A stretch of 5,139 nucleotides of DNA from a virus (lineage: Duplodnaviria; Heunggongvirae; Uroviricota; Caudoviricetes): positions 1 through 5,139 of the IMG/VR virus record IMGVR_UViG_2751185961_000001; one strand, 5' to 3'. The translations under genes were made by a program, and so were the position numbers. The first letter of the stretch is position 1. Each line of letters begins with the position of its first letter. The notes beneath the pieces are model-generated. The model saw nothing but the letters and a program-made list of their open reading frames with translations. It did not search any database and was not told the DNA's origin. Of this stretch, positions 1 to 5,139 are shown piece by piece.

Positions 1-77
1 TCCACTTTGCAAGCGCCGCCACAAAATACCCAGCCAACAGACAACAAAAAAATCACTCCCCAGCATTAACGCATTAA

Positions 78-103
78 CCCGGCCTCAGCGCCGGGTTTTT
101 GTT
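78..103 (+). terminator. Rho-independent terminator, probably closing an upstream + strand (immunity-region) transcript
   Basis: Stem CCCGGC (78-83) pairs with GCCGGG (90-95) around a 6-nt loop, followed by TTTTTGTTG (96-104). The reverse complement has no U-tract, so it is + strand specific. Stop codons in two frames (67-69, 72-74) sit just upstream, consistent with the 3' end of a gene that starts before the window. Confidence 0.6.
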
Positions 104-312
104 GCCTGCACATAACTATCAGGACAGCACCTGCCAGCCAGCCCAAGCCTCTGATTAAATTACTATAATTCTTAATACAACTCCCATATCCCGCCATCTC
201 GTCACCACCTACTTCGCTCGTTTTTCGAACTTTTCAGCACACCATCCTGCTGTTTCCCCCGCCTTAAGTAAGCAAACCCATCGCGGGGAAAACTATTTAC
301 ACAAAAAAATCA

Positions 313-390
313 TACACATAACGTGTCACACCCTTATTTTACACATTTTGTGATTGACCATTAAATCACAATATGTGACTATTATTTCCA
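313..390 (+). promoter_or_regulatory. Putative pL-like early promoter with overlapping operator palindromes
   Basis: Candidate -35 TTGACC (355-360) and -10 TATTAT (380-385), with a rather long 19-bp spacer. A 24-bp palindrome TTGTGATT-N8-AATCACAA (348-371) overlaps the -35. A second near-palindrome TCACA-ATA-TGTGA (366-378) and a related site GTGTCACA (323-330) share the half-site TGTGAY/RTCACA. About 190 nt upstream of the N-like gene start. Confidence 0.4.
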
Positions 391-428
391 TCAGCAGGAC
401 GCTGGTAGCCAAACGGAAAAGATTGGCA

Positions 429-476
429 GGCTCTTTAAACAACGTCGAACACTCGACTACGTGGCTGAAAAGCCAG
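429..476 (+). promoter_or_regulatory. Putative nutL-like site (boxA plus candidate boxB hairpins) in the N leader
   Basis: GGCTCTTTAAACAA (429-442) resembles the boxA consensus CGCTCTTTA / rrn TGCTCTTTAACAA. Two short hairpins follow: GTCGA-ACAC-TCGAC (444-457), and TGGCT-GAAA-AGCCA (462-475), which has a purine-rich loop like lambda boxB. Position between promoter and N gene is as expected for nutL. Confidence 0.4.
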
Positions 477-573
477 ATCACCCAACCACATAAGCTGTGG
501 GATGCAATGCCGAAGCAACCGTCTCAGGAGGAGCTTCGAGATTGCATCGCCAAAGTTTATTCGGGAGGAATCT

Positions 574-846
574 ATGTCCAGAAAAACAGAATTTAAAGGC
601 ACCGCAGCTTCTCGCCGTAGAGCTCGTCGCGCAAACCTGCAAAGTCAGGAGTCGATTAGCTCCGACAAGCTACACAGGCCAACCCCTTCACGAGTGGTCT
701 TGCAATGCAAGCGCAAACCAGCAATGAGAGCAGAAGTTATAACTCTGACAACGTTGACCAGAAAATATGAAGGTTCAACTTGTCTTCCAAACGTAGCCAT
801 TTACGCTGCAGGCTACCGTAAATCCAAACAACTGACAGCAAGATGA
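574..846 (+). CDS. N: Transcription antitermination protein N (phage 21 / P22-type)
   Basis: 90-aa basic protein; ATG at 574 preceded by GGGAGG (563-568) with 5-nt spacing. N-terminal arginine-rich motif KGTAASRRRARRANL closely resembles the phage 21 N boxB-binding peptide GTAKSRYKARRAEL and the lambda/P22 N ARMs (recalled from literature). The C-terminus AIYAAGYRKSKQLTAR resembles recalled N-family C-termini. Sits just downstream of the operator/promoter and boxA-like element. The in-frame upstream ATG at 502 lacks a good RBS. Confidence 0.7.
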   Translation: MSRKTEFKGTAASRRRARRANLQSQESISSDKLHRPTPSRVVLQCKRKPAMRAEVITLTTLTRKYEGSTCLPNVAIYAAGYRKSKQLTAR

Positions 847-907
847 CTTGTGTTGGTCGCCAGAAAATGAAATTAGGCAGCAAACCACTTATTTGAGAGG
901 AATTAAT

Positions 908-1531
908 ATGTCATCAATCCGCTTAACTACGAGAATGAAAGAGGAAATCGCTCGTAACGCTTTAATTAAGTCCGGGGTGTTCACTGAACTTGAAGAAGTA
1001 ACAAAGTTAAAGAACCAGCTTGCACTTGACGCCAGAGTTATTGCGTTTGGCGGGAAAAAGAAAACCGAAGGAGTGGACCAGCTGGCATCAAAGTTAATGG
1101 CTGCAAGTGAGGAACTTCAAAAGCTGGGATGTTCATTTTACTCATGCGATGTCAGTTCATGTTCGATTTATCTGACTGTATCTGGAAGAAGGGTTGGCTG
1201 GCATTCATACGGAAAAGACGGCAACGGTGAAGATATATTGCTCCCTACCCCCGACAAAGATAAATGCATGTTTGACGCAGAACACAAAATAACAAAAAGG
1301 TTTGATGAAATCTGCGCATTGCAACAAAAACTTGAAGCCAGGAAAAAGGATATAGAATCAAACGTATGGGCTGCTTTGAACTCAGTCACAACAGTTAAGC
1401 GACTTATTGAAGTTTGGCCTGAAAGCAAAGAGTTGCTACCAAAAGAAGCAGATAAAGCAAGTGCAGCACTTCCTGCTTTACGGGTAGAAGATTTGAATAA
1501 GATGATTGGACTTCCTTCCGAGGCCGCATAA
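908..1531 (+). CDS. Hypothetical protein (207 aa) in the variable cargo slot between N and cIII; cysteine cluster C-x4-C-x4-C
   Basis: ATG at 908 with RBS GAGAGGA (895-901) at 7-nt spacing. The ORF is long and clean, and visibly more AT-rich than its neighbours. Contains GCSFYSCDVSSCSIY (Cys 75/80/85) plus His99, Cys120, His126, flanked by charged helical-looking segments. I recognise no family. Its own intrinsic terminator overlaps the stop codon. Confidence 0.6.
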   Translation: MSSIRLTTRMKEEIARNALIKSGVFTELEEVTKLKNQLALDARVIAFGGKKKTEGVDQLASKLMAASEELQKLGCSFYSCDVSSCSIYLTVSGRRVGWHSYGKDGNGEDILLPTPDKDKCMFDAEHKITKRFDEICALQQKLEARKKDIESNVWAALNSVTTVKRLIEVWPESKELLPKEADKASAALPALRVEDLNKMIGLPSEAA

Positions 1532-1546
1532 TCGGCCTTTATTTTT
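1521..1546 (+). terminator. Rho-independent terminator (tL1-like) at the end of the 207-aa gene
   Basis: Stem AGGCCG (1521-1526) pairs with CGGCCT (1533-1538); the 6-nt loop CATAAT contains the TAA stop codon (1529-1531); followed by TTTATTTTT (1538-1546). + strand specific. Confidence 0.6.
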
Positions 1547-1575
1547 GGCATAAACAACAGAATAAACACTGCACT

Positions 1576-1603
1576 GTGTATTCATTCCAACGAGTGAATA
1601 CAC
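1576..1603 (+). promoter_or_regulatory. Perfect 9-bp inverted repeat (operator-like site or RNA hairpin) in the intergenic region before cIII
   Basis: GTGTATTCA (1576-1584) and TGAATACAC (1595-1603) are exact reverse complements around a 10-nt spacer. No U-tract follows, so it is not a classical terminator. GGAG lies immediately downstream. Confidence 0.35.
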
Positions 1604-1665
1604 GGAGCAATGTCGCTCGTAACCAAACAGGAGCCGACTTGTTCTGATTATTGGAAATCTTCTTT

Positions 1666-1690
1666 GCCCTCCAGTGTGAGGGCCTTTTTA
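1666..1690 (+). terminator. Rho-independent terminator-like hairpin (tL2-like) upstream of cIII
   Basis: Stem GCCCTC (1666-1671) pairs with GAGGGC (1678-1683) around loop CAGTGT, followed by CTTTTTA (1684-1690). A weaker hairpin AACGC / GCGTT (1704-1723) followed by a T-rich run lies just after it. Confidence 0.5.
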
Positions 1691-1751
1691 TATGCATACC
1701 AATAACGCTTCACTCGAGGCGTTTTCGTTATGTATAAATAAGGAGCACACC

Positions 1752-1877
1752 ATGCAATATGCCATTGCAGGGTGGCCTGTTGCTGGCTGCCCTTCCGAAT
1801 CTTTACTTGAACGAATCACCCGTAAATTACGTGACGGATGGAAAAGAGTTGAGGTCTTATTATGCGCAATGAAATAG
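1752..1877 (+). CDS. cIII: cIII protein (FtsH inhibitor) with a short, divergent C-terminus
   Basis: 41 aa, MQYAIAGWPVAGCPSESLLERITRKLRDGWKRVEVLLCAMK. The first ~31 residues match my recollection of lambda cIII (MQYAIAGWPVAGCPSESLLERITRKLRAGWKR...) almost exactly, including the amphipathic ESLLERITRKLR core. RBS AGGAG (1741-1745) is 6 nt upstream of the ATG. Below the 60-aa cutoff of the ORF track; the listed ORF 1692..1877 is an N-terminally extended version of the same frame. Confidence 0.65.
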   Translation: MQYAIAGWPVAGCPSESLLERITRKLRDGWKRVEVLLCAMK

Positions 1878-2014
1878 CCATCAATCACCAGATGCTTCGT
1901 GCTGCACAAAACAAAGCAGTAATAGCCAGATTTATTGGTGATTCAAAAATGTGGCTTGAAGCAAATAAAGCGATGAAATCAGCTATCAACCTTCCGTGGT
2001 ATCGCAGGAAATGA
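1862..2014 (+). CDS. kil: Kil-like host cell-division inhibitor peptide (50 aa)
   Basis: ATG at 1862 overlaps the cIII 3' end by 16 nt, as kil overlaps cIII in lambda. Translation: MRNEIAINHQMLRAAQNKAVIARFIGDSKMWLEANKAMKSAINLPWYRRK. The segment IARFIGDSKMWLEA resembles my uncertain recollection of lambda Kil (…IATFIGDEKMFREA…). Size and position fit. Not in the ORF track (under 60 aa). Confidence 0.45.
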   Translation: MRNEIAINHQMLRAAQNKAVIARFIGDSKMWLEANKAMKSAINLPWYRRK

Positions 2015-2118
2015 GTTTTACAGATAACTGGTCAGACGAAGAATTCATTCGTCAGATGAACAAAATGCTCAATCAGCACAAAGAACAGGAGAAAGATGAT
2101 GATTCTGACTCTGAATGA
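2011..2118 (+). CDS. Small hypothetical protein (35 aa), acidic C-terminus
   Basis: ATG at 2011 overlaps the stop of the Kil-like ORF (ATGA), and its 3' end overlaps the next gene by 23 nt. Translation: MSFTDNWSDEEFIRQMNKMLNQHKEQEKDDDSDSE. No independent SD sequence; could be a coupled gene or spurious. Confidence 0.3.
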   Translation: MSFTDNWSDEEFIRQMNKMLNQHKEQEKDDDSDSE

Positions 2119-2407
2119 TAAGCGTGAAATATCGCAAATAATCGCAAGTTTTACTGATAAAGATTACGAACGAATCAACAGTGAAGTTGATCGCCTCTGC
2201 AAACGTTGCGACCCAATAAGCGAAATGCTTCGCTCATATAAACCAGATGAACACACTAAGGACGCTATCGACTGGCTGGAAGATGATGACTGTAACTATC
2301 AGGAAAAAGCCGCTGAATGGTTCTGGGATGCAATAACCGAAAGAGTTAAGGCTGAATATGCCTTCGCAATATTCAAACGCAGACATATTTATGGAGAAGC
2401 AGCATGA
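2096..2407 (+). CDS. Hypothetical acidic protein (103 aa), translationally coupled to recT
   Basis: ATG at 2096 with RBS AGGAG (2087-2091) at 4-nt spacing. Its stop TGA overlaps the recT start (ATGA at 2404-2407). Asp/Glu/Trp-rich (…DWLEDDDCNYQEKAAEWFWDAITERVKAEYAFAIFKRR…). Occupies the position where Gam or Abc-type RecBCD modulators sit in lambda and P22, but I see no similarity to lambda Gam. Confidence 0.6.
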   Translation: MMILTLNDKREISQIIASFTDKDYERINSEVDRLCKRCDPISEMLRSYKPDEHTKDAIDWLEDDDCNYQEKAAEWFWDAITERVKAEYAFAIFKRRHIYGEAA

Positions 2408-3315
2408 GCAATATCGTTGAATTCGTTAAACAGCAAGAGCAGTTATTCTGCGGAGCATTGACTGAACAGACGGTGACATGGGCTAAGGAAAGCCAGTTTG
2501 CAATTCAGTATTTCCAGAAAAACGATTACCTGGCTAAAACAGCACTGGCAAATCCAACCAGCGCACAGAACGCCATCATCAATGTTGCGGCGATCGGAAT
2601 CACCTTAAACCCGGCCAGCAAACTTGCTTATCTAGTTCCGCGCGACGGCATTGTTTGCCTTGATATCAGCTATATGGGATTGCTCCATATTGCAATGGAG
2701 TCTGGTGTTATCTCATGGGGTCAGGCAAAACTTGTTCATGCTAACGATACCTATGAGTCAAACGGGCTTGATAAATCACCAACCCATAAATACAACGCCT
2801 TCGGTGATCGTGGTGATATCGTTGGCGTTTACTGCACAGTTAAGACGCCAGCAGGTGATTATCTAACGGAAGAGATGAGTCTGGCTGAAATTGAGGCTGT
2901 AAGGAAAACAAGCAAGGCAGCATTCAGCGATAAAGGACCATGGGTAAATCACTGGAATGAGATGGCACGAAAGACGGTCGTAAAGCGTGCAAGCAAGTAT
3001 TGGCCTAAGGCATCACGTCTTGATAGTGCTATTCACGTACTAAACGAAGAAGAAGGTGTATGGACTGAACCAGTTATGCCGCACAAATCAGAGGAAGATA
3101 TCCGCGAAGATGAACGGAAACGCCAGCAGGAAATAATGGATAAAGCACAACTTCTTTGCGATGAAATGGCTCAGGCAGAAAACATGGATGATTTGAAGCG
3201 ATATTTTGCAGAAGCATATCGCCTGACATCTGGAATGAAATTGCAGCAGAACGTACAAGCCATTTACATAGAATGCAAAGCGAAACTGGAGGTTGCCAGT
3301 GAGCAAACTGTATGA
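2404..3315 (+). CDS. recT: RecT-family single-strand annealing recombinase
   Basis: 303 aa; RBS GGAG 9 nt upstream. The segment GPWVNHWNEMARKTVVKRASKYWP closely matches the E. coli Rac RecT segment GPWVTHWEEMAKKTAIRRLFKYLP (recalled), and the N-terminal half has the RecT-like layout. Confidence 0.85.
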   Translation: MSNIVEFVKQQEQLFCGALTEQTVTWAKESQFAIQYFQKNDYLAKTALANPTSAQNAIINVAAIGITLNPASKLAYLVPRDGIVCLDISYMGLLHIAMESGVISWGQAKLVHANDTYESNGLDKSPTHKYNAFGDRGDIVGVYCTVKTPAGDYLTEEMSLAEIEAVRKTSKAAFSDKGPWVNHWNEMARKTVVKRASKYWPKASRLDSAIHVLNEEEGVWTEPVMPHKSEEDIREDERKRQQEIMDKAQLLCDEMAQAENMDDLKRYFAEAYRLTSGMKLQQNVQAIYIECKAKLEVASEQTV

Positions 3316-3781
3316 AATAGCCAATGAATACGCAAAGCTGATGGATTCAGATTTAGAGCCAGAGATGATTGCTGACACAATAGAAGGCATGGAAGGAGAA
3401 TTTACCGATAAAATAGAGCAACTTCTTGCCATTATTAAAAATGAATCTGGTTATGCTGAACGCCTCAAGGACGAGGCAAAGTCACTGAATGAACGAGCAG
3501 CAGTAATTCAAAATAAGATTGATAGCATTATGGCATATATAGCGTCATCGCTTGAAATGGTTGGCAAGAAAAAGATTCGAGCAGGTATTCACCAGGTAAC
3601 AATCCGCAAACCGTCAGAAACTGTAGAAATCATCGACTCAAGCGCCATTCCTCCTGAATACGTTGAGTTTGAAACGACAATTAAAGCCGACAAGTTGGCA
3701 ATCAAGCACCAACTAAAAGCAGGAATAAATATCCCAGGTGCTCAAATCAAGGTTGGGAAACCTTCACTTCTTATCAAATAA
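3299..3781 (+). CDS. Siphovirus Gp157-family protein
   Basis: The frame is open from 3293 (TTG); the best start is GTG at 3299, with GGAGG (3288-3292) 6 nt upstream. It overlaps the recT 3' end by 17 nt. Landmarks (N-terminal KLYEIANEY, central GKKKIRAG, C-terminal IPPEYVEF) match my recollection of the Sipho_Gp157 family, which typically sits next to RecT/Erf/Sak recombinases. Confidence 0.65.
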   Translation: MSKLYEIANEYAKLMDSDLEPEMIADTIEGMEGEFTDKIEQLLAIIKNESGYAERLKDEAKSLNERAAVIQNKIDSIMAYIASSLEMVGKKKIRAGIHQVTIRKPSETVEIIDSSAIPPEYVEFETTIKADKLAIKHQLKAGINIPGAQIKVGKPSLLIK

Positions 3782-3792
3782 CGGTATCGCCT

Positions 3793-4107
3793 ATGAAAAA
3801 GACTCCATGGGAGAAATGGGAAGTCGATTTCTTGCGCGAAGTAGCGGCGACAATGCCAGTTGAAGTTATCGCTGAAAAACTGGAAAGGACTGAAAAAGCA
3901 GTAATGGCGAAAGCAACAAGGATTGGCGCTGACATTGTTAGCCGACTTCGTGGAAGACGATGGACAAGAGCCGAAGTATCACTTTTCGGTAAGTTCTCCG
4001 CAGAAGAAATAGCAATTGCAACCTGCCGCTCAATTTATTCAGTAAGAGCTATGCGATACAAGCTAAAAAAACTCGATGAAGAAAGAGCAGGCATACGAAT
4101 AAATTAA
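3793..4107 (+). CDS. Hypothetical protein (104 aa) with two tandem helix-turn-helix-like repeats
   Basis: Internal duplication: WEKWEVDFLREVAATMPVEVIAEKLERTEKAVMAKATRIG versus RRWTRAEVSLFGKFSAEEIAIATCRSIYSVRAMRYKLKKL. Both follow the pattern W-x2-E-x2-L…E(V/I)IA…R(T/S)…AV, reminiscent of SANT/Myb-type helix-turn-helix repeats. Weak SD. Confidence 0.55.
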   Translation: MKKTPWEKWEVDFLREVAATMPVEVIAEKLERTEKAVMAKATRIGADIVSRLRGRRWTRAEVSLFGKFSAEEIAIATCRSIYSVRAMRYKLKKLDEERAGIRIN

Positions 4108-4123
4108 CATGGGGTAATTAACA

Positions 4124-4405
4124 ATGAAGCTAAACATCGACCTCGGAAAATACGTTATTACCGGAACCAAACACGACCTGATTCTTAGCGAAAGAGGAAT
4201 TATCAAAGAAGGCGAGAATGCAGGGAAAGAAACACTAAGTCGTATCGGTTATTACAGCAAGTTTGAGCATCTGGTTAAAGAGTTATGCAACCGTGAAATC
4301 CTGTTATCTCAGGCGCAGACGCTACAGGATATTCAGCAGCATATCGAAACTTTAGGTATGTCACTTAGCATGGCTATTGACCAGTTCGTTGAGAGTAAAT
4401 CATGA
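4124..4405 (+). CDS. Hypothetical protein (93 aa)
   Basis: ATG at 4124 with GGGG 9 nt upstream; clean ORF. Its stop overlaps the next start (ATGA at 4402-4405). No family recognised. Confidence 0.5.
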
Positions 4406-4566
4406 GAGGACTTGCATACAATCCCGGCATTCTTCCGGCAGAAATGATTATTCGCCAACGCGTAAAGCCAATGCCATCGAGAGAGGAATTGCTTAAGAGA
4501 AATTCTTTTCCATCAGTAAATCAAAACAAATATCTGAATGCGATGTTGCGGAGTGGGAAGAAATGA
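4402..4566 (+). CDS. Small hypothetical protein (54 aa), translationally coupled on both sides
   Basis: ATG at 4402 overlaps the upstream stop; its TGA at 4564-4566 overlaps the ATG of the next gene at 4563-4565. Translation: [54 protein letters not shown]. Not in the ORF track (under 60 aa). Confidence 0.4.
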
Positions 4567-5048
4567 AACAAATGTCACTAATTGAGATGGATGGATTTCT
4601 GAAAGGTAAATGCATCCCCCGAGATTTAAAGGTTAACGAAACAAACGCTGAATATCTTGTCCGTAAGTTCGGTGAACTTGAATCAAAACTAGAAACGGCG
4701 TTGCGGGAGTGTCGTTCTTCTGGAATCACGATTGATAACCTTGAGGCCAAGTGCGCGGCGCTGGCAGCGGAGAGTGCGGGGATGAAGAAGTTCTGCAAAG
4801 ACGCTGCATTCGATGCCGATTACGAAGCAGAGCTAGGTATGGAGCGTGGTGGATTCAGTGATGCGCTTAACGAAATCAAAACCCCAGCCACCGATGCTTT
4901 CCTGGCTGAAATTGAACGCAAAGCAATCCGCAAGTTTATTAACAGCATTGAACACATCCTGCGTGACAAGCTGTCACCGTATGACACCGAAGAGATGCTT
5001 GAGGCTATGCGTATTTTTCTGGAAGAACAGGGAGTTGAGCAAAAATGA
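4563..5048 (+). CDS. Hypothetical protein (161 aa), predicted helical / coiled-coil
   Basis: ATG at 4563 with GGAG 9 nt upstream. Charged, Ala/Glu/Leu-rich sequence. Its stop overlaps the next start (ATGA at 5045-5048). Possibly an early-region Ea-type accessory protein, but that is a guess from position only. Confidence 0.55.
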
Positions 5049-5139
5049 CGATCACAAAACAACGAGTAGAAAAAATCATATATCGCCATGAAATGGGACT
5101 GAACAGCGATGTCACTGCCGAAGAGGTTTATGACCTGGC
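5045..5139 (+). CDS. Hypothetical protein, 5' fragment (continues past the window end)
   Basis: ATG at 5045 overlaps the upstream stop. The frame stays open to the window edge ([31 protein letters not shown]…). Confidence 0.4.
   Translation, partial: MTITKQRVEKIIYRHEMGLNSDVTAEEVYDL

Follow-up and report, generated by a model that had tools for sequence, protein, structure and literature searches.

The closest described systems to the gene analysed here are the Gam-type proteins of lambdoid phages. Lambda Gam (GamS; PF06064; PDB 2UUZ, 5MBV) is encoded in the pL operon after kil and directly before the strand-annealing gene, is all-helical, measures about 98-102 amino acids (aa) with an isoelectric point (pI) of ~4.7 and a net charge of ~-9, and has, beyond RecBCD, further targets in SbcCD (cited in PMC5218532) and in KwaB of Kiwa (PMC11785009). 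GamL of phages phi80 and Lula (PF28165) is likewise acidic and helical, is 93 aa long, is encoded directly upstream of RecT and has little sequence identity to lambda Gam; its predicted fold is Gam-like according to Zheng et al. 2025 (PMC12315714). Here we describe gene X, at positions 2096..2407 on the + strand of a 5,139-nucleotide stretch of a Caudoviricetes virus (positions 1 to 5,139 of IMG/VR record IMGVR_UViG_2751185961_000001, the whole of which we call the window). Gene X shares this position, size, acidity and, by prediction, helical make-up, and we consider it fairly likely to encode a divergent host-nuclease inhibitor of the Gam fold.

Other small proteins of such modules are also relevant. 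P22 Abc2, Abc1 and Arf are, like X, small proteins within the pL recombination module, and they modify RecBCD or aid recombination. Gp33 of HK75/HK446 is uncharacterised and, like X, opens a lambdoid recombination locus after kil; it was reported to be sufficient to trigger P2 Old and, on functional grounds, was proposed to perturb RecBCD, whether as an inhibitor of a new kind or as a manipulator (bioRxiv 10.64898/2026.07.10.737580). Mu Gam/Sipho_Gp157, which is encoded in the same module as X, is presumed to protect DNA ends from RecBCD. In the most recent and most thorough census of lambdoid recombination modules, Zheng et al. 2025 (PMC12315714) found lambdoid phages without an anti-RecBCD protein to be mostly Chi-rich and those with one mostly Chi-free; X was not counted there. 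The original prediction, made from the window's letters, had placed a nuclease inhibitor in the gam position. The predicted fold, an exchange with gam in phage Dewey, a length and charge like those of GamS and Chi-free genomes that carry X without another such gene all speak for it, while the inhibitory function itself would follow by analogy. These features, together with a sequence motif collinear with one in Gam, are the reasons for our preferred reading.

Results

Gene X heads phage recombination modules and is exchanged with gam

Gene X is an open frame of 103 codons plus a stop, or 102 aa when counted from a second in-frame ATG at 2099, the version found in most homologues and in the HK140 annotation. 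As read from the sequence, a Shine-Dalgarno AGGAG (2085..2089, +) lies 6 nt before the ATG at 2096 and 9 nt before that at 2099, and the stop codon of X overlaps the start codon of recT in an ATGA (2404..2407, +), indicative of translational coupling; the recT ribosome binding site, GGAG at 2393-2396, lies inside X. An overlap of 1 or 4 nt onto the next gene is kept in all contexts examined, namely SEN22, ENT47670, Midgardsormr38, phiEt88, PA-1 and metagenomic loci. The product matches PHROG 3486 end to end (E 2.8e-59; residues 2-103 on profile positions 1-102 of 102), a family of unknown function with no functional annotation. An exhaustive hidden Markov model (HMM) search of 1.84 billion representatives yielded 53 representative homologues at 50% clustering, and full-length relatives stay at 97-110 aa down to ~25% identity. 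Given the PHROG match, the kept length of the homologues and the conserved overlap with the next gene, X is a real gene and not a chance open reading frame (ORF). The frame and its ATGA coupling to the downstream recT had been called correctly in the original prediction, which had further described the product as acidic and Trp-rich: it is indeed acidic (23 D+E against 16 K+R, net charge -7, pI 4.81), but with 3 Trp in 103 residues (2.9%) the enrichment in Trp is modest.

The X family comprises acidic helical proteins of ~100 aa from temperate phages in Enterobacterales. They are annotated as hypothetical proteins in every record examined, including those of HK140, mEpX1, Kapi1 and SEN22 and of the 265 complete E. 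coli genomes with the full orf35 + X cassette, and X has no match in Pfam, NCBIfam or PADLOC, nor in PDB sequence searches with X alone or with the family profile. X is the first gene of the recombination module in every context examined, even for members at 25-34% identity. The order in the window is cIII-kil-orf35-X-recT, where orf35 (2011..2118, +) is a 35-aa acidic ORF that forms an ATGA overlap with the kil stop and overlaps the X start by 23 nt. X thus occupies the position of a Gam-type gene, in pL, after cIII/kil and directly upstream of the annealing/exonuclease genes.

The exchange with gam is seen directly in phage Dewey. Its homology to the window ends at 2017, the end of kil, and restarts at 2401, the start of recT (95.7% identity); between kil and recT Dewey carries an 80-aa ORF (orf80) and a true lambda-type Gam (PF06064, E 1.5e-50). 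Because the homology breaks exactly at the cassette ends, the pair orf35 + X is allelic to the pair orf80 + gam, with the rest of the module the same. Of 80 viral contigs whose RecT is 87-99% identical, the arrangement is orf35-X-RecT-Gp157 in 79 and kil-Gam-RecT-Gp157 in one, and none has both X and Gam or neither, a count that is consistent with allelism though weak as statistics since these contigs are closely related. In phage phi80 the corresponding slot holds gamL, ahead of a RecT with 59% identity to that of the window over 227 aligned residues (BLASTP 3e-91).

What follows X is variable. The order X-RecT-Gp157 is found in the window, Pantoea phage PA-1 (the sole addition among further tblastn searches with distant X members), a Pantoea prophage and metagenomic contigs with X at 25-34% identity, and X-PF27050-RecT-Gp157 in metagenomic contigs, with the PF27050 (Phage_P22_Y8K6) gene at 5306-5629 of contig L013. 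Cronobacter ENT47670 and Erwinia Midgardsormr38 have X-RecT-Exo, Erwinia phiEt88 has X-RecE-RecT, and Salmonella SEN22 has X-RecE. SEN22 and the window have only 2011-2407 (orf35 + X) conserved, at 97.5% identity, and not the flanks. The proposal that X is tied to recT specifically therefore falls, as orf35 + X also precedes RecE in SEN22 and phiEt88.

This variability bears on an alternative in which X is a recombinase accessory or mediator, in a role like that of P22 Arf, lambda Orf/NinB or T4 UvsY, and binds RecT/RecE or the host single-stranded DNA-binding protein to aid their loading or regulation, with no action on host nucleases. Such a role would suit the conserved translational coupling to a recombinase or exonuclease gene, the Arf-like mini-ORF that travels with X, and a weak, non-significant Foldseek likeness of our first structural model to T4 UvsY (E 3.3-8, TM about 0.3). 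Yet X remains unchanged while its partner varies between RecT, RecE and an intervening PF27050 gene, and the SEN22 cassette, 97.5% identical to that of the window, precedes RecE in a module to which Zheng et al. 2025 (PMC12315714) assign no strand-annealing protein. In addition, gam, which is exchanged with X in this slot, is no recombinase cofactor, the top structural match of X is Gam and not a mediator, and NinB/Orf mediators are already present elsewhere in these phages. We accordingly hold a mediator role to be quite improbable.

X carries the C-terminal motif of lambda Gam outside the known sequence families

The most conserved block of the X family is codons 53-79 (HTKDAIDWLEDDDCNYQEKAAEWFWDA; 2252..2332, +), which aligns with GamS 57-83 at the same relative position. 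Profile-profile comparison of X with lambda-type Gam by hhalign gave a local, collinear match of 27 columns with 41% identity, E 0.0012 and a probability of 19%, and the motif common to the two is (S/T)K-A-I...DDD..(F/Y)QE.AAE(F/W). Its score of 22.7 exceeded those of 400/400 column-shuffled X controls (mean 11.0, standard deviation 2.2, maximum 20.3), and the reversed alignment scored 8.6. Q69 is near-invariant, being kept in 33/37 sequences of the family alignment. When the alignment was relaxed, X and Gam were collinear end to end and almost gapless, including an N-terminal D-(K/R)-x-E, with a global score that is not significant.

The two families also agree in bulk properties. Members of the X family have lengths of 97-110 aa, a median pI of 4.65 and a median net charge of -9, against 97-98 aa, 4.73 and -9 for GamS and 87-94 aa, 4.61 and -7 for GamL; the X family thus has the small, acidic, DNA-mimic-like composition of GamS.

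As for family membership, the same approach readily connects phi80 GamL with Gam (hhalign probability 90-94%, through the N-terminal helix), and in whole-genome scans with the Gam HMM phi80 GamL was found weakly and X never. Between X and phi80 GamL, BLASTP gave an out-of-register match at E 0.096 and profile-profile hhalign a probability of 0.1%; with a merged Gam + GamL profile the X signal was lost because the GamL rows gap out the Gam motif, so that this comparison carries no information. With P22 Abc2 as query, phmmer found no match among the complete ORF sets of six genomes, X genes included. Judged by sequence models, X fails membership of the Gam, GamL and Abc2 families, yet it has the same-position motif of lambda Gam. 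A comparison with Gam, Abc2 and anti-RecBCD profiles, as proposed in the original prediction, thus returned a local Gam match at E 0.0012 and no match to PF06064, PF28165 or Abc2.

The resulting relationships differ from one system to the next. Lambda Gam and X are interchangeable in the same module and have a common motif at the same relative position; X differs in having no significant PF06064 match and an overall identity of about 16-19%, in that conservation of Gam's RecB-plugging N-terminal helix is undetectable and a kink is predicted there, in lacking the long N-terminal extension of the lambda GamL isoform, and in usually standing beside a Mu-Gam-like gene. GamL of phi80 keeps Gam's N-terminal helix (MNAYxxxDRIE), whereas X keeps the C-terminal motif, and similarity between X and GamL is not detectable; GamL has, moreover, an antitoxin-like partner (agt/mog) that is absent at the X locus. 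Searches with P22 Abc2, Abc1 and Arf by phmmer against X-containing genomes gave no match on X, and Abc2 binds RecC and is encoded downstream of erf, whereas X is upstream of the recombinase. Gp33 (56 aa) corresponds to orf35 and not to X, and has no similarity to X, Gam or GamL. Mu Gam/Sipho_Gp157 is another gene with another fold and mechanism (Ku-like DNA-end binding versus enzyme binding), and X has no match to PF07352 or PF05565.

The predicted fold of X resembles that of GamS

We modelled X with AlphaFold2 (AF2), in a first model from six close sequences (predicted local distance difference test, pLDDT, 74.9) and in a second from 26 family members down to 24% identity, as a monomer and with no templates. 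The second model reached a pLDDT of 85.5 and a predicted template modelling score of 0.72, and consists of five helices at residues 5-16, 20-36, 39-46, 53-63 and 65-101. Among PDB folds, lambda GamS was the best match to the predicted fold of X, with 16% identity, the amount expected from the 27-residue motif. The predicted structure has both an N-terminal helix and a C-terminal helical domain, as the GamS fold does. The N-terminal helix is a single long one in Gam; in X a break is predicted at residues 17-19.

As far as the model can tell, a chance origin of this top rank is very unlikely, because a family that had been suspected beforehand ranked first in an unbiased search of a library that holds few RecBCD-inhibitor folds. 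The remark in the original prediction that X does not resemble lambda Gam holds for the overall sequence; it fails for the predicted fold and for the 27-residue C-terminal motif. Since both of these resemble Gam, X is probably a divergent Gam-fold lineage and not an unrelated inhibitor.

Phages with X as the only candidate inhibitor are free of Chi

Four taxonomically diverse carriers of X, namely SEN22, ENT47670, phiEt88 and Midgardsormr38, have no detectable Gam, GamL, Abc2 or Gp157. Chi (GCTGGTGG) occurs 0 times on both strands of all four genomes, while the expectation from their composition, summed over all strands of the four, is about 5.5 sites (Poisson P ~0.004). A lack of Chi is what one would predict for phages that disable RecBCD. 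Zheng et al. 2025 (PMC12315714) scored the SEN22 class as having no anti-RecBCD protein but 0/0 Chi, and described HK140-type modules as consisting of a strand-annealing protein and MuGam only. If X is an anti-RecBCD protein, modules scored as lacking one, such as those of the SEN22 class, would be reclassified, and their Chi-free genomes would then obey the rule of the census.

Several results weigh against a Gam-type assignment. PF06064 (Gam) gave no match to X at E<=0.1 and none to the 37 family members at E<=10, PF28165 (GamL) gave none to X or to the 37 members at E<=10, and the hhalign probabilities for X are just 19% with Gam and 0.1% with GamL. Foldseek with the first model against PDB returned nothing below E 2, Gam being absent; with the second model against BFVD, Gam was absent among the top 50 listed, all of them uncharacterised proteins, which include UPI001E6C2358 (probably a distant member of the X family, TM 0.56) and an Edno5 protein. 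The Chi rule is also imperfect: HK140 has 4 top-strand and 0 bottom-strand Chi sites despite its presumed anti-RecBCD functions X and Gp157, and phi80 has 7 top-strand and 2 bottom-strand sites despite GamL, likewise presumed to be one, counts that fit the 'exceptional' class of Zheng et al. 2025 (PMC12315714). Lastly, most X carriers also encode a Mu-Gam-like protein after recT, so that a second RecBCD blocker may seem redundant. Such doubling has parallels, however, as Dewey has a true Gam with the same Gp157, and HK639 has GamL with MuGam. All Chi sites of HK140 lie in the structural-gene half of the genome, far from the recombination module.

The low hhalign probability and the two Foldseek searches in which Gam did not appear, together with a pL operon full of unrelated accessory genes, would also suit a conserved small phage protein of unrelated function, for instance in lysogeny control or host take-over, whose likeness to Gam is a coincidence of acidic helical bundles. 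Four independent coincidences would then be needed, in the fold rank, in a motif that beats its shuffled controls, in the allelic replacement of gam and in length and charge, and the strict position of X as the leading gene of recombination modules, kept across deep divergence, would be left unexplained. We see a slim chance for such a function.

X as a putative Gam-type inhibitor of host nucleases

From the comparisons above, it is reasonably probable that X works like Gam and GamL, and it probably shares their fold, as far as modelling indicates. X would then be an early pL product of ~100 residues, strongly acidic and all-helical, with translation coupled to that of the recombinase. By analogy with lambda GamS (Court 2007; Wilkinson 2016, PMC5218532), it may dimerise through its C-terminal helices, and the acidic, DNA-like surface of the dimer would occupy the DNA-end-binding site of RecBCD and possibly that of SbcCD, with one N-terminal helix in the single-stranded-DNA channel of RecB as in GamS (PMC5218532). 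RecBCD would thus be blocked sterically. Linear phage DNA, such as rolling-circle tails, recombination intermediates and ends resected for RecT or RecE, would be protected, and end processing may be passed to the phage RecT- or RecE-based pathway rather than to the host Chi/RecA pathway.

The neighbouring Mu-Gam-like gene raises the question of the target. X might be a Gam-fold DNA mimic with another main target, be it SbcCD, KwaB as the effector of Kiwa or some other defence protein that binds DNA or DNA ends, while the Mu-Gam-like protein handles RecBCD. X and Sipho_Gp157/Mu-Gam-like occur together in 79/80 close loci as well as in more distant ones from Pantoea and metagenomes, lambda Gam itself has SbcCD and KwaB as targets beyond RecBCD, and what X keeps is just the C-terminal motif, the RecB-plugging helix-1 region of Gam being not detectably conserved. 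Against this stand Dewey, whose true Gam lies beside the same Gp157, so that co-occurrence does not imply a different target, and the four X-only phages, whose lack of Chi fits a neutralised RecBCD; no positive evidence points to any alternative target. We therefore judge a different main target to be rather unlikely.

A broader version of this idea, to which we give a minor though real share of probability, takes X for a third Gam-fold DNA-mimic lineage, unrecognisable by sequence, that has been retargeted or forms part of a layered counter-defence. orf35, X and the Mu-Gam-like Gp157 might then split the work of neutralising RecBCD, SbcCD and Kiwa-like defences, or of avoiding the RecBCD guards retron Ec48 and P2 Old. 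A division of labour of this kind would account for the second end-protection protein beside X and for the divergence of the RecB-plugging helix in X.

Returning to the Gam-type inhibitor that we favour, the analogies make it a moderately well-founded proposal that X represents a third sequence lineage of Gam-type proteins, outside PF06064, PF28165 and the Abc2 family by sequence. Across at least three sequence families (Gam, GamL and X), which are cassette-swapped at the same mosaic junctions, Gam-like proteins seem to be maintained as one structural class. If X is such a protein, it would give RecT-based recombineering and quinolone potentiation a small candidate inhibitor of RecBCD, and it would be likely to trigger defence systems that guard RecBCD, such as retron Ec48 and P2 Old.

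The surrounding pL operon and orf35

The window represents the early-left (pL) operon of a temperate lambdoid phage of the same type as HK140, mEpX1 and Kapi1, with 96-97% identity to these phages over ~60% of its length in a mosaic pattern. Its + strand carries N (about 574-846), an Nmad5-domain gene (908-1531), cIII (1752..1877; PF02061, E 5.7e-21), kil (1862..2014; PF06301, E 1.7e-20), which is the left boundary of the exchangeable cassette, then orf35 and X, and recT for the single-strand annealing protein (2404..3315; PF03837, E 1.5e-31). The Nmad5-domain protein (207 aa) is matched along its whole length by Pfam Nmad5 (nucleotide modification associated domain 5; E 5.3e-68) and has no PADLOC match. 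Its gene lies between N and cIII, where other relatives have other accessory genes, and may be a moron or a counter-defence gene.

After recT lies the Sipho_Gp157 or 'Mu Gam-like end protection' gene (3293..3781, +), with matches to PF05565 (E 1.3e-36), phrog_253 (7.5e-53) and, at only 0.0061, PF07352 (Mu Gam). It probably starts at the GTG at 3299, as annotated in HK140, and was counted as the MuGam anti-RecBCD protein of HK140 by Zheng et al. 2025 (PMC12315714). We presume it to provide the other anti-RecBCD function of the module, and with it X is not the sole inhibitor candidate there; both this gene and orf35 had been overlooked in the original prediction. The module tolerates inserted genes: in phage Louie (L004), an HNH endonuclease gene (3990-4457) stands between recT and Gp157, as the PF27050 gene of L013 does between X and recT. 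Further on, the + strand encodes a small basic helix-turn-helix protein of 104 aa (3793-4107), assigned by PHROG as a D5-like transcriptional regulator, a DUF5405 protein (4124-4405), a 54-aa ORF (4402-4566) and an Ea22-like protein (4563-5048). A homologue of the 3793-4107 product is labelled 'Anti-RecBCD protein 1, similar to P22 Abc1' in the phage Gally record; BLASTP against P22 Abc1 found no similarity, and the label looks unsupported at the sequence level.

The product of orf35 (MSFTDNWSDEEFIRQMNKMLNQHKEQEKDDDSDSE) matches phrog_17766 (E 5e-16), phrog_2123 (3.5e-10) and, weakly, the Arf family phrog_2445 (0.062). Its residues 1-16 are identical to those of HK75 Gp33, which is 56 aa long and whose gene lies between kil and erf, while the C-terminal halves of the two are wholly different. 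With P22 Arf it has SDEEFI in common, as well as a kil-proximal position. From the likeness of orf35 to Gp33 and Arf, as many as three small genes around recT in the window may be related to RecBCD. The full orf35 + X cassette is present in 265/5,426 complete E. coli genomes. The segment 2011-2060 of the window, covering the kil stop and the N-terminus of orf35, occurs at 98-100% identity in 1,099/5,426 of them and looks like a conserved mosaic junction or linker for the exchange of recombination-module heads.

An ORF upstream of X was considered as a universal partner and rejected, being Arf-like in E. coli, Salmonella and Cronobacter, whereas members from Erwinia, Pantoea and metagenomes have a kil-like or cIII-like ORF there. 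In the latter relatives a short ORF does overlap the X start (L007 3888-4004, L011 4891-5004, L013 4865-5017), with a basic, kil-like product, e.g. MKSRYFSKAQELCREAVMYSNADKWAAAMNILRRAFQP. As the overlapping ORF is not Arf-like in these relatives, the pairing of orf35 with X is lineage-specific.

Two further observations concern the ends of X and its natural variants. Nearly all family members end in E-(A/V)-A, encoded in the window by GAA GCA GCA TGA with GGA before them. These codons hold the Shine-Dalgarno sequence and the start codon of recT, for which reason the conserved end is probably imposed by downstream translation signals rather than by protein function. Natural chimeras also occur: P0025 (69 aa) joins the N-terminus of orf35 to the C-terminus of X at their common DDD run, in P0022 residues 1-48 of X lead into an Ea22-like C-terminus similar to window 4563-5048, and P0009 is a fusion of X with DUF551. 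The chimeras are probably deletion or recombination products, and some may be pseudogenes.

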